Shown here in pieces: positions 59,911-61,436 of a stretch of 64,000 nucleotides of DNA. This DNA is from Alphaproteobacteria bacterium (GTDB lineage Bacteria > Pseudomonadota > Alphaproteobacteria > Rs-D84): contig JAWPOE010000004.1 in the NCBI GenBank assembly GCA_033345195.1, positions 108,005-172,004 on the forward strand, written 5' to 3'. The notes under the pieces were generated by a model. That model worked only from the letters and a program-made list of their open reading frames with translations. It did no database searches and was not told the origin of the DNA. Position 1 is the first letter of the stretch. Every line of letters begins with the position of its first letter. The position numbers were made by a program, and so were the translations under genes.

Positions 59911-60213
59911 TTAATGTCTTTGCTTGGTCTGGCTTTTAACGCATTGTTCACAAATATTTTGTGCCAGGATAGAAATCGCATTCGTCATCTGCTCAACCTG
60001 TTCTGGTTCTACCTGGGGGCGAATAGAAACAATACACTTACCAATATGTTCAACGGTTCTATTGACCTTGGTTATATGTTTCATTGGCCCAAATGTACTG
60101 ACCAAGCGACATGACACGCCGGGATACACACATGTTGCCATTATTAGTCTTGGCGATTGAACAACACTAAATCCCTGTCCCACATTATCATAATCATTTT
60201 CTTTATTTGCCAT
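59911..60213 (-). CDS. hypothetical protein inserted between rimM and trmD
   Basis: 100 aa ORF, 4-5 nt intergenic gaps on both sides; no domain recognised. Confidence 0.5.
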   Translation of the reverse strand: MANKENDYDNVGQGFSVVQSPRLIMATCVYPGVSCRLVSTFGPMKHITKVNRTVEHIGKCIVSIRPQVEPEQVEQMTNAISILAQNICEQCVKSQTKQRH

Positions 60214-60217
60214 TTTC

Positions 60218-60685
60218 TTATCTCACATAAATAGTTTTATTTTCAAAATCAACATTTGCGCCCTTAAAAGATGCCATGTTGCCATTATCCAGCTCAACAA
60301 TATCACCTGCGCCAAAATTTTGGAAACAGGAAACAGTGCCTAATTTCAATCCATCACGAACGACATAAAATCCAATTAAATCAGCCTGATAATATTCACC
60401 GTTTGCAACTGGGGGCAGGGCATCACGCACAACGAACAGTTCGGTACCACGCAATGTTTCTGCGGCATTTCTGTCATCAACCCCATTAATTTTTGCGATT
60501 ACAACATTTGAACTTGGTACAGTACGCACAAACTTAAAATCACCGTCATTAAACTTGTCGCTAAATACATTCAGCGTCTTAAAATCCATTGGGTTTTCCG
60601 TATATGTATTAACGCGCACTTCGCCCCGAATTCCCTGGGGGGCGACAATTTTTCCAACCAAGATTTTATTATTATCGTTCGACAT
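60218..60685 (-). CDS. rimM: ribosome maturation factor RimM
   Basis: LVGKIVAPQGIRGEVRV N-terminal RimM motif plus PRC-barrel C-terminus. Confidence 0.9.
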   Translation of the reverse strand: MSNDNNKILVGKIVAPQGIRGEVRVNTYTENPMDFKTLNVFSDKFNDGDFKFVRTVPSSNVVIAKINGVDDRNAAETLRGTELFVVRDALPPVANGEYYQADLIGFYVVRDGLKLGTVSCFQNFGAGDIVELDNGNMASFKGANVDFENKTIYVR

Positions 60686-60686
60686 A

Positions 60687-61019
60687 TTATTTTTTCTTTT
60701 GTTGTTGCTGTGCCAATATCATTTCGTATCGCAACCGTCTAACACAGTTTAATTCCGGCACAGGACAATTGTGAAACATATCTTCGGATGTACAGAACAC
60801 GGTATCACACTTGTTTTCTGCCGCCCATTCAACTGCGCGCGCCCATCTGTTAAACCGCACTAACTTTTGCCGACACAACGTTCTATCATATGGACAATCT
60901 GTATCAGGATCAAATTCAGTCCGTTTTTCTTCTTTTTGTTCCGCACGTTTTAAATCATGCGGGCTAAGCGACCCTATATCAACAACTTCGACATCTGGAT
61001 TAAAGAACTTTCCTGCCAT
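60687..61019 (-). CDS. small cysteine-rich protein, paralog C (110 aa, 8 Cys)
   Basis: shares a C-terminal motif N/D-C-x-R/K-x-L...Q.QK with the two upstream ORFs; 1-nt gap to rimM. Confidence 0.5.
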   Translation of the reverse strand: MAGKFFNPDVEVVDIGSLSPHDLKRAEQKEEKRTEFDPDTDCPYDRTLCRQKLVRFNRWARAVEWAAENKCDTVFCTSEDMFHNCPVPELNCVRRLRYEMILAQQQQKKK

Positions 61020-61021
61020 AC

Positions 61022-61219
61022 CTATTTACTCTTTTGTTTCTCAAGATATGCACGCAATTTTAAACAATCGTACGCATTTGCAACACAATCACCCCCGGTT
61101 AAAAAAGCCCATTGCTTATTGCTTAACAGTGCCTCATCCATTTGGCGATACAATTCGTCTAAACGTTCTTGTTGTGTACATTCCAGTTTGCCATTGCTTT
61201 TTGGGCAATATTTTGACAT
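61022..61219 (-). CDS. small cysteine-rich protein, paralog B (65 aa, 5 Cys)
   Basis: MSKYCPKSNGKLEC...GGDCVANAYDCLKLRAYLEKQKSK; 2-nt gap to the next gene. Confidence 0.45.
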   Translation of the reverse strand: MSKYCPKSNGKLECTQQERLDELYRQMDEALLSNKQWAFLTGGDCVANAYDCLKLRAYLEKQKSK

Positions 61220-61223
61220 TTGT

Positions 61224-61436
61224 TTACCTTTGCTTTTGTTGCGATTGCATAGCGGCCAAATAACGTGGACAATCTTGATATTTTGCCATACATTCTGACA
61301 TAGAAACAGTATATGAAAATACTTTTGCGCCTTTTACTTCAAACGCCACCTTACGTTGACGTGCCAGTTCTCTATTGCAATATCCATAATCACAAACAAT
61401 TTCACTATTGTGTGGACAAATTTTTTCTAAACTCAT
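61224..61436 (-). CDS. small cysteine-rich protein, paralog A (70 aa, 7 Cys)
   Basis: MSLEKICPHNSEIVCDYGYC...QDCPRYLAAMQSQQKQR; 4-nt gap to paralog B. Confidence 0.45.
   Translation of the reverse strand: MSLEKICPHNSEIVCDYGYCNRELARQRKVAFEVKGAKVFSYTVSMSECMAKYQDCPRYLAAMQSQQKQR

Follow-up and report, generated by a model that had tools for sequence, protein, structure and literature searches.

Why should an operon that belongs to the core of the translation apparatus carry small, cysteine-rich open reading frames (ORFs) between its genes, and are these ORFs genes at all? The question is raised by a window of 64 000 nucleotides (64 kb; the whole stretch of DNA analysed here, from contig JAWPOE010000004.1), in which the rpsP-rimM-trmD-rplS operon holds three such ORFs (A, B and C) between rpsP and rimM and a fourth (D) between rimM and trmD. 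This gene cluster is among the most conserved in bacteria, and yet up to ~3 kb of it is devoted to orphan four-cysteine mini-proteins. The analysis reported here makes it near certain that A-D encode real proteins on which purifying selection acts, and that these belong to two families, restricted to this lineage and unrelated to each other, whose members are small, soluble and mildly basic and have four cysteines at their core. The chief feature of the locus, which an earlier account made by a model from the sequence alone (the sequence-only reading) had overlooked, is an extreme variation between species in copy number and cassette type. The source of the window is a Candidatus Enterousia-like metagenome-assembled genome (MAG) of the order Rs-D84. 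Enterousia, a member of this uncultured order, has genomes that are mostly <1 Mb, without a tricarboxylic acid cycle, respiratory chains or pseudogene accumulation, and is an anaerobic fermenter (PMC12306168). The genes of the operon, in the order of transcription, are as follows.

61530-61967, minus strand: rpsP, encoding bS16 (145 aa); Pfam Ribosomal_S16, E=1.9e-22
61224-61436, minus strand: ORF A, 70 aa, family fam0, cysteines at 7, 15, 20, 49 and 56; fam0 hidden Markov model (HMM), E=1.3e-13
61022-61219, minus strand: ORF B, 65 aa, fam0, cysteines at 5, 14, 45 and 52; fam0 HMM, E=3.2e-15
60687-61019, minus strand: ORF C, 110 aa, fam0 core (residues ~40-110) plus an N-terminal extension, cysteines at 42, 49, 71, 76, 85 and 92; fam0 HMM, E=3.8e-36
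60218-60685, minus strand: rimM, 155 aa; Pfam RimM N-terminal domain, E=6.5e-19
59911-60213, minus strand: ORF D, 100 aa, fam1/2/5 superfamily, invariant cysteines at 28, 35, 88 and 91; fam1 HMM, E=8.6e-20
59220-59906, minus strand: trmD, 228 aa; Pfam tRNA_m1G_MT, E=6.1e-45
58831-59223, minus strand: rplS, encoding bL19 (130 aa), its start overlapping the trmD stop; Pfam Ribosomal_L19, E=6.7e-43

The three ORFs of 70, 65 and 110 aa, 2-4 nt apart, and the 100-aa ORF between rimM and trmD are thus present as the sequence-only reading had described them. The spacers are 4 nt (A-B), 2 nt (B-C), 1 nt (C-rimM), 4 nt (rimM-D) and 4 nt (D-trmD), and the base composition is alike in the inserts and the flanking genes. 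The count of 5-8 cysteines per ORF did not hold, a recount giving five, four and six in A, B and C, and five in D. An exact-sequence look-up showed that A-D are annotated in the public record as hypothetical proteins only.

To place the four ORFs among their relatives, we used a trmD-anchored scan of species-representative genomes, which yielded 80 loci of ~10 kb with a trmD 85-95% identical to that of the window; another 235 trmD-matching loci were left out, and all locus counts below refer to the retrieved loci. Nearly all of the 80 come from Candidatus Enterousia or from gut alphaproteobacterial MAGs of ruminants, horses, birds and humans. One of them (L071, contig CAVGNU010000005.1) has an Enterousia-type operon with a trmD 87% identical to that of the window and is deposited as Bacteroides fragilis; this record is probably a mislabelled or contaminated bin. 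Gap ORFs were counted if they began with ATG, did not overlap and were at least 45 aa long, and families were built by BLASTP single linkage (E<1e-4).

A, B and C fall in one family, fam0, whose 80 ORFs all lie in the rpsP-rimM gap. In direct BLASTP comparisons the three are weakly similar at best (A-B, E=0.002; A-C and B-C not significant), but this single-linkage family aligns on a common four-cysteine core, and the earlier proposal that they are paralogs is upheld. The shared core of ~60 residues reads C-P-[YH]-[DN]-x2-3-C, a helix (often ER-DEFYRQM), a variable loop, C-P-x5-7-C-x-[RK] and a basic tail. The spacing of the first cysteine pair is within 6-8 in all 80 members (6 in 43, 7 in 35 and 8 in 2), while that of the second is 5-9, and a conserved CxxC is found in neither. 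C-type members have an additional conserved N-terminal extension (FFNPD...), and four species encode a fused two-domain fam0 protein. Judged from this alignment, the true signature common to A-C is the cysteine pattern.

ORF D belongs elsewhere. Its single-linkage family, fam1, contains 60 ORFs, every one in the rimM-trmD gap, and an alignment of fam1, fam2 and fam5 has four invariant cysteines, which correspond to D positions 28, 35, 88 and 91 (C-x6-C ... C-x2-C). The hhalign probabilities are 95% for fam1-fam2 and 93% for fam1-fam5, against 0.1-0.5% for fam0 and any other family (0.1-0.3% for fam0 and these three). That D might be a fourth paralog of A-C is ruled out (hhalign probability 0.3%), and by profile comparison the D superfamily is unrelated to fam0. 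Most singleton ORFs in the rimM-trmD gap follow the plan C-x5-8-C ... C-x2-C. In both the fam0 and the D-family alignments the cysteines are the only invariant residues, the remainder of the sequence falling to 10-25% identity; within subfamilies, non-ligand positions and fold are also conserved. The small proteins are mildly basic (median pI, or isoelectric point, 8.3-9.2), with a median of five cysteines in 75-90 residues. As the sequence-only reading had held, there is no signal peptide: no hydrophobic segment long enough for an export signal or a membrane span is seen in A-D or their relatives.

The gaps also harbor minor families. Proteins of fam3 (~105 aa, six cysteines, …CxxxC…CP…C…) are encoded directly 5' of trmD in L065-L075, L008, L060 and L077 and also in L080; the human-gut clade has fam3 and is missing fam0, to which, as to fam1, fam3 is unrelated by hhalign. 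Another family, fam4 (~80 aa, MAKAPKA…, two cysteines only, dN/dS 0.10), begins directly after rpsP in nine species (rpsP-rimM gap of L008, L021, L028, L034, L050, L059, L060, L078 and L079) and has no Pfam match. In L043 and L061 (3770-4999, plus strand, in both) the rimM-trmD gap contains, after three small cysteine-rich ORFs, an ORF of 409 aa with 12 cysteines and no Pfam match, the C-terminus of which also has C-x2-C followed by KGQR.

The families are tied to their junctions. When HMMs of eight families were run against the six-frame ORFs of the window and the 80 loci, matches were obtained only in the two operon gaps, and each HMM matched its own gap only. It is near certain that fam0 occurs only between rpsP and rimM, and the D superfamily only between rimM and trmD, in Candidatus Enterousia (Rs-D84). 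Other arrays of cysteine-rich intergenic ORFs were not found elsewhere in the window. Look-ups from six starting proteins, including the most distant family members, always returned the order S16, small ORFs, RimM, small ORFs, TrmD, L19. Among 1.84 billion cluster representatives, searched exhaustively by profile, only 85 proteins matched at E<=1e-3; of 15 matches inspected, three were eukaryotic repeat proteins, judged spurious. One distant cluster is named Candidatus Enterousia avistercoris. A word-indexed homolog search returned Enterousia-type proteins only. Pfam, NCBIfam, PHROGs and PADLOC profiles gave no significant match for A-D, for 80 + 71 family members or for representatives of the minor families, in agreement with the earlier statement that no known family could be assigned. 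Sequence profile searches of the PDB found nothing significant, and we found no description of these genes in the literature on Enterousia, Rs-D84 or small cysteine-rich proteins in ribosomal operons.

Whether the ORFs are real genes was judged from the ratio of nonsynonymous to synonymous substitution rates (dN/dS, Nei-Gojobori). The medians below refer to recognisable orthologs at 60-97% identity, a choice of pairs that is biased toward conserved ones.

fam0: median dN/dS 0.12
fam1: median dN/dS 0.20
fam2: median dN/dS 0.13
fam3: median dN/dS 0.12
fam4: median dN/dS 0.10
rpsP: median dN/dS 0.06
rimM: median dN/dS 0.16
trmD: median dN/dS 0.08
rplS: median dN/dS 0.05

The sequence-only reading had said that a dN/dS of about 1 in relatives would speak against it; the medians of the small-ORF families are 0.10-0.20 instead, at a dS of ~0.8. 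For the ORFs of the window, comparison with the closest relative, L002, gave 0.15 (C) and 0.10 (D), and comparison of A with its best ortholog (63% identical, in L035, a species more distant than L002) gave 0.30. The same ORFs are called by independent gene callers in public assemblies. A-D could still be taken for non-functional ORFs, spurious or decaying, in intergenic DNA that has expanded, a view to which their annotation as hypothetical proteins only, the lack of family matches and the absence of the genes from some species would lend themselves, and which we regard as highly improbable. The dN/dS values at this dS, cysteines that are invariant over 71-80 sequences, and frames that are kept, with tight spacing and starts in a ribosome-binding-site-like context, all speak against it, as do the ~82 clusters (at 50% identity) found in the 1.84 billion representatives and the lack of pseudogene accumulation in Enterousia genomes (PMC12306168). 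Taken together with the constant cysteines and the intact frames, the dN/dS values leave practically no room for spurious ORFs, an idea that the data on selection and conservation already contradict.

The organization of the two gaps was compared in 77 species-level loci (the window included) that have rpsP, rimM and trmD. Between rpsP and rimM the smallest gap is 48 bp and holds no ORF, and the largest is ~1007 bp; between rimM and trmD the gap spans -1 to ~2092 bp, with an empty form of 2 bp. Each locus has zero to three ORFs in the first gap and zero to five in the second, 208 in total, and there are 37 distinct gap architectures. Homologous ORFs occupy the two gaps in most of the 77 loci, which goes well beyond chance. 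Three loci (L070, L074 and L076) have a plain contiguous operon from which all inserts are missing, so that the genes are dispensable; the inserts are a derived, dispensable and highly variable trait of the genus. The earlier claim that the operon is normally contiguous stands insofar as the inserts are unusual and three related species have the contiguous form, but is too strong for bacteria at large, the Bacillus subtilis rimM operon containing ylqC (PMC10100781).

The small ORFs also turn over rapidly. Between species whose RimM proteins are 80-89% identical, 51% of the small ORFs have no BLASTP homolog in the partner operon, and the homologs that are found have a median identity of 59%; at 90-99% RimM identity, 20% are still without a homolog. 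A comparison of the window with L002, to which its flanks are 85-89% identical in nucleotide sequence, localizes one such change.

61070-61490, minus strand: replaced cassette (ORF A and most of ORF B), without nucleotide homology to L002; BLASTN breakpoints and 60-nt sliding identity

Homology ends just past the hairpin that follows rpsP, at 61490, and restarts at 61069, within the last ~45 nt of ORF B. Sliding identity (60 nt) is 0.33-0.58 inside this segment and mostly 0.85-1.0 in rpsP, ORF C and rimM; ORF C is 95% identical to its L002 ortholog. In the replaced segment the first ORF of L002 belongs to another family, fam9, and its B-type ORF is only 51% identical. A metagenomic contig of 602 nt (P0113) encodes an N-terminal (5') fragment of rimM (13/25 identical, E=3e-6) followed by a fam0 domain, a fusion which, from its sequence, is the footprint of a duplication spanning the fam0-rimM junction. 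These comparisons point to evolution of the arrays by birth-and-death, that is, by tandem duplication, fusion and loss, and also to recombinational replacement or differential loss of old paralogs. The locus offers a clean natural example of how genes arise and are lost within an essential operon.

Turnover of this kind brings to mind conflict or host-interaction genes, directed at a fast-changing partner (phage proteins, competitor toxins, a host or a partner cell), for which the operon, one that cannot be silenced, would provide no more than constitutive expression and protection from deletion. The 37 architectures of this hypervariable region, the 51% of ORFs without a homolog at 80-89% RimM identity, the sharp boundaries of the replaced cassette, the species that lack all of the genes, and a reduced genome with probable dependence on a partner (PMC12306168) agree with such a role. 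On the other side, PADLOC and PHROGs profiles gave no match, a tblastn search with C and D gave no match among 50,697 phage records, and mobile-element genes were not seen in the gaps of the loci examined; each family keeps to one chromosomal position, unlike defence islands, and recognisable orthologs are under purifying, not diversifying, selection. We consider this explanation unlikely, while giving it some weight.

The C-terminal tails seem, for the most part, to have another origin than had been proposed. The sequence-only reading had taken a shared C-terminal motif (Q-x-Q-K) as a sign of paralogy. However, 196 of the 208 ORFs (94%), from unrelated families, end in lysine or arginine, and in the last six residues Q is enriched 4.1-fold, K 3.2-fold and R 2.5-fold. 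Of the arginine codons, AGA and AGG account for 61% among the last six codons and for 27% in the bodies of the ORFs; purines make up 74% of the final 18 nt, compared with 55% in the bodies; and the next ATG usually follows 0-8 nt past the stop. Ordinary genes of the window with the next gene <=12 nt away have the same purine enrichment (0.72 versus 0.60), and six of 11 such tightly packed genes (55%) end in K/R, versus 29% of the other genes. For the most part, the Q-x-Q-K or QKQR tail reflects an initiation signal for the gene that follows (a ribosome-binding site or A-rich initiation region) which lies within coding sequence; as a mark of homology or a protein motif the tail is largely rejected. 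The case shows that an embedded ribosome-binding site can produce a false shared C-terminal motif. The 94% of K/R ends, only partly explained by this embedding, can also be claimed for conflict genes, above all in a version in which the products are secreted effectors with the basic tail as export signal; a signal peptide was not seen in A-D or their relatives.

How the small ORFs may be expressed is indicated by the following elements of the operon.

62107-62135, minus strand: promoter-like site 5' of rpsP, TTGACT-17-CATAAT; a 10/12 consensus match only
61494-61519, minus strand: G+C-rich hairpin directly 3' of rpsP, followed by TTTTGT; 11-bp stem with seven G-C pairs; terminator scan
59439-59467, minus strand: strong, near-consensus sigma-70 promoter-like site within trmD, ~215 nt 5' of rplS, TTGACA-17-GATAAT; an 11/12 consensus match only
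58808-58829, scored on both strands: terminator-like hairpin at the operon end; 9-bp stem, then a T run; terminator scan

The G+C hairpin after rpsP, which had been noticed as a possible attenuator, is conserved: in 68 of the 77 loci the rpsP stop is immediately followed by a stable hairpin (minimum free energy at most -16.7 kcal/mol), also where the gap is only 48 bp and free of ORFs. Stem sequences vary and are of at least four kinds (GCCCGGG/CCCGGGC, CTGCACAG/CTGTGCAG, GCGCCCGC/GCGGGCGC and GGCCCAAGG/CCTTGGGCC), and a T-rich run is usually found 3' of them. The nine loci without a hairpin are exactly those in which fam4 starts directly after rpsP; where it is present, the small ORFs are always 3' of it. 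A consensus scan found no promoter-like site between the hairpin and ORF A, and an Rfam scan of the operon found no known RNA. The hairpin is a probable leaky terminator or attenuator, and as a leaky terminator it would probably leave the ORFs, rimM and trmD less transcribed than rpsP. The B. subtilis operon has a terminator within it, downstream of ylqC, and rplS has a promoter of its own there, P3 (PMC10100781); the site inside trmD suggests that here, as in B. subtilis, rplS may be transcribed independently. According to the model that we propose, the small ORFs would be co-transcribed with rimM and trmD by read-through of the leaky hairpin, and translated serially by coupling, each stop being 0-8 nt away from the following ATG, whose ribosome-binding site would be contained in the purine-rich 3' end of the preceding ORF, where K/R are encoded. 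Read-through together with coupled translation would result in product levels like those of RimM and TrmD, not like those of ribosomal proteins. Drawn from the layout of these elements, this expression model seems to us rather likely to be correct.

The same layout would suit a role in cis. In Escherichia coli, RimM and TrmD are made at a much lower level than S16 and L19. The ORFs might be translated spacers that set the ribosome supply to rimM and trmD by coupling, in place of the E. coli-type control by mRNA structure, in which case the peptides themselves would matter little. Tight packing, ribosome-binding sites embedded in the 3' ends of the ORFs, the arrangement of hairpin and read-through, and a copy number that varies exactly at the junctions preceding the two low-abundance genes of the operon are what one would expect of such spacers. 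They would not account for a dN/dS of 0.10-0.20, which is selection on the amino-acid sequence, for four cysteines that are invariant across very divergent members, or for the confidently folded model of D described below, and insert-free species manage without them. We judge the spacer function to be improbable.

Structure prediction was more informative for D than for fam0. The AlphaFold2 model of D, built from 16 sequences, has a mean predicted local distance difference test score (pLDDT) of 79.5 and a predicted template modelling score (pTM) of 0.72, only one of the five models being confident. Its elements are in the order strand-strand-helix-strand-strand-long helix, with C28 at the end of strand 2, C35 just ahead of helix 1, and C88 and C91 inside the C-terminal helix. 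The model of C (32 sequences) has three helices and low confidence (pLDDT 63.7), and each conserved cysteine pair is in a loop entering a helix. Foldseek gave no match at E<=1e-3 for the C and D models against the PDB or for D against BFVD; the best match of D, a weak one, was Rpb11 (5x51_K, E=3.8e-3, template modelling score 0.44, root-mean-square deviation 8.3 A, 10-16% identity).

We propose that the four cysteines may together bind a single metal ion, which would stabilise a mini-domain; in the reducing cytoplasm of an anaerobe, Zn2+ is the most likely candidate. Alternatively, the proteins might serve in metal buffering or storage, or as small Fe-S redox proteins, with a copy number that tracks the metal supply of the gut and with only the ligand cysteines constrained. 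Cysteines as the sole invariant residues (the remainder at 10-25% identity), variable copy number, Cys-Pro motifs, five weak Fer4_8 matches (best E=0.018, below threshold) and the anaerobic, fermenting life of the organism (PMC12306168) fit this alternative. It is nevertheless hard to reconcile with a single four-cysteine site per 65-110 residues, far under a metallothionein-like capacity, with a position 3' of a terminator-like hairpin, which implies modest abundance, or with the conservation of non-ligand positions and fold within subfamilies, and no ferredoxin, WhiB or metallothionein match was significant. A role of this kind appears to us improbable as well.

The stabilised mini-domains would, on our proposal, be non-essential, lineage-specific adaptors that bind RNA or protein of the translation apparatus, in 30S maturation or tRNA modification. 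Zinc binding and a link to translation, both suggested by the sequence-only reading, are plausible. We favor a translation-linked adaptor on four grounds: the association with this operon is old and exclusive, translation would be coupled, the proteins are basic, and selection on them is purifying. Several points weigh against it. In the libraries searched, no homology ties the families to metal binding, ribosomes, RimM or TrmD, and local tandem duplication alone can explain the tie between family and junction, with no functional link needed. Three species (L070, L074 and L076) do without any insert. Binders of conserved ribosomal components do not usually diverge to such an extreme, vary in copy number or have their cassettes replaced, and such hypervariability fits the conflict or host-interaction alternative at least as well. 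A cysteine spacing of 6-8 is not that of the classical CxxC zinc knuckle, and the cysteines may instead bind Fe-S or form disulfides; the fam0 model is of low confidence (pLDDT 63.7); and the proportion of K/R ends (94%) exceeds that in ordinary coupled genes (55%, from only 11 genes) and is not fully explained. The functional part of our proposal, metal-stabilised and translation-linked adaptors, is accordingly put forward as a tentative one that may well be wrong, and for the explanation as a whole (real genes, expression model and function) we see the chances as evenly balanced.

Binding to ribosomes, RimM or TrmD, if it occurs, would make the proteins modulators of translation particular to this lineage; should there be no such binding, essential operons would be shown to be able to host fast-evolving accessory genes. 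The two families are new, and the libraries searched contain neither sequence nor fold relatives of them. A bolder idea is that the arrays are a new kind of locus, in which cassettes of metal-stabilised mini-proteins, fixed in an essential operon, are hypervariable and diversify through duplication and recombination. Such cassettes would either customise translation, as ribosome- or tRNA-associated modulators specific to the lineage, or provide constitutively expressed factors for conflict or host interaction in a bacterium with a genome of <1 Mb; we rate this idea as quite unlikely.

Some features of the surroundings were recorded in passing. In bS16 (61530-61967) the S16 domain covers residues 9-71, the C-terminal half being a low-complexity Lys/Glu/Ala-rich extension (…AEEKAAAEAAAKAAAEAPAEE…), and the length of the protein varies among relatives from 140 to 155 aa. 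A tRNA-Gly(CCC) gene 5' of the operon on the opposite strand (62699-62772, plus strand) is 100% identical over 77-79 nt in L019 and L035, despite diverged surrounding DNA. On the 3' side of rplS, 58421-58804 (minus strand) encodes a 127-aa protein with a signal-peptide-like N-terminus, and the relatives' gene at this position is annotated DUF2155; further small ORFs without a family match occupy the region 57695-58000 (minus strand), followed by tsaD at 56568-57731. Elsewhere in the window, 24763-25142 (plus strand) specifies a two-piece (permuted) alphaproteobacterial transfer-messenger RNA with the tag peptide AANDNVRLAMAA (ARAGORN; Rfam RF01849/RF04321).

The small proteins were compared with several known systems. 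The alpha+beta two-layer fold of Rpb11/RpoL-like proteins resembles D in the order of its elements and in ending with a long C-terminal helix; unlike D, these proteins lack a four-cysteine site, and they are not related to it in sequence. Small Cys4 zinc proteins (zinc ribbons, treble clefs, bL31, bL33, bL36, uS14 and bS18) are likewise cytoplasmic proteins of 60-110 aa with two cysteine pairs and a context of translation. However, zinc ribbons and treble clefs have two CxxC knuckles, whereas the pairs here are C-x6-8-C and C-x5-9-C in fam0, and C-x6-C and C-x2-C in D; an assignment to them is not supported, as fam0 has no conserved CxxC, the one CxxC of D is modelled inside the long C-terminal helix, and there was no zinc-ribbon Pfam match. 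Paralogs of bL31, bL33, bL36, uS14 or bS18 are rejected, no ribosomal-protein profile of Pfam or NCBIfam matching A-D or their relatives. CHCH twin-Cx9C proteins, helix-loop-helix mini-proteins with two Cx9C motifs in antiparallel helices, are like fam0 in the predicted helical form of the latter, in which two helices each begin with a cysteine pair, as if four cysteines held the helices together; but the first-pair spacing of fam0 is 6-8, not 9, no Pfam CHCH match was obtained, and CHCH proteins belong to an oxidising compartment, whereas fam0 is in the cytoplasm of an anaerobe and has proline after the first cysteine of each pair. Metallothioneins contain ~15-30% cysteine in CxC/CC clusters and bind several metal ions, and the small proteins, with a median of five cysteines in 75-90 residues and a single four-cysteine site, are not of this type. 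WhiB or ferredoxin Fe-S proteins are set aside, the matches being sub-threshold only (Fer4_8 in 5/71, best E=0.018; Whib in 1/71, E=0.072) and the cysteine spacing different from the characteristic CxxCxxCxxxCP or Cx(n)CxxCx5C, and so are PADLOC defence proteins and PHROGs phage families, neither library giving a match at E<=1.

The closest parallel in gene order is provided by ylqC and ylqD of Firmicutes, which we take to lie between rpsP and rimM in B. subtilis (rpsP-ylqC-ylqD-rimM-trmD-rplS). Like fam0, they are small accessory ORFs between these two genes, co-transcribed with ribosome-biogenesis genes. YlqC is a conserved, single-copy KH-domain protein (UPF0109), whereas the families described here have four cysteines, variable copy number and fast turnover, and no KH domain was matched by Pfam in A-D, in any of the 80 fam0 members or in representatives of the other gap families, fam4 included. 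We know of no Firmicutes counterpart of the second array, between rimM and trmD. The terminator after ylqC and the rplS promoter of B. subtilis (PMC10100781) resemble the rpsP hairpin and the promoter-like site inside trmD. Thus accessory genes in the rpsP operon and small Cys4 proteins are both known, and what is unusual is the presence of two junction-specific hypervariable arrays in the otherwise invariant operon of a genome of <1 Mb.

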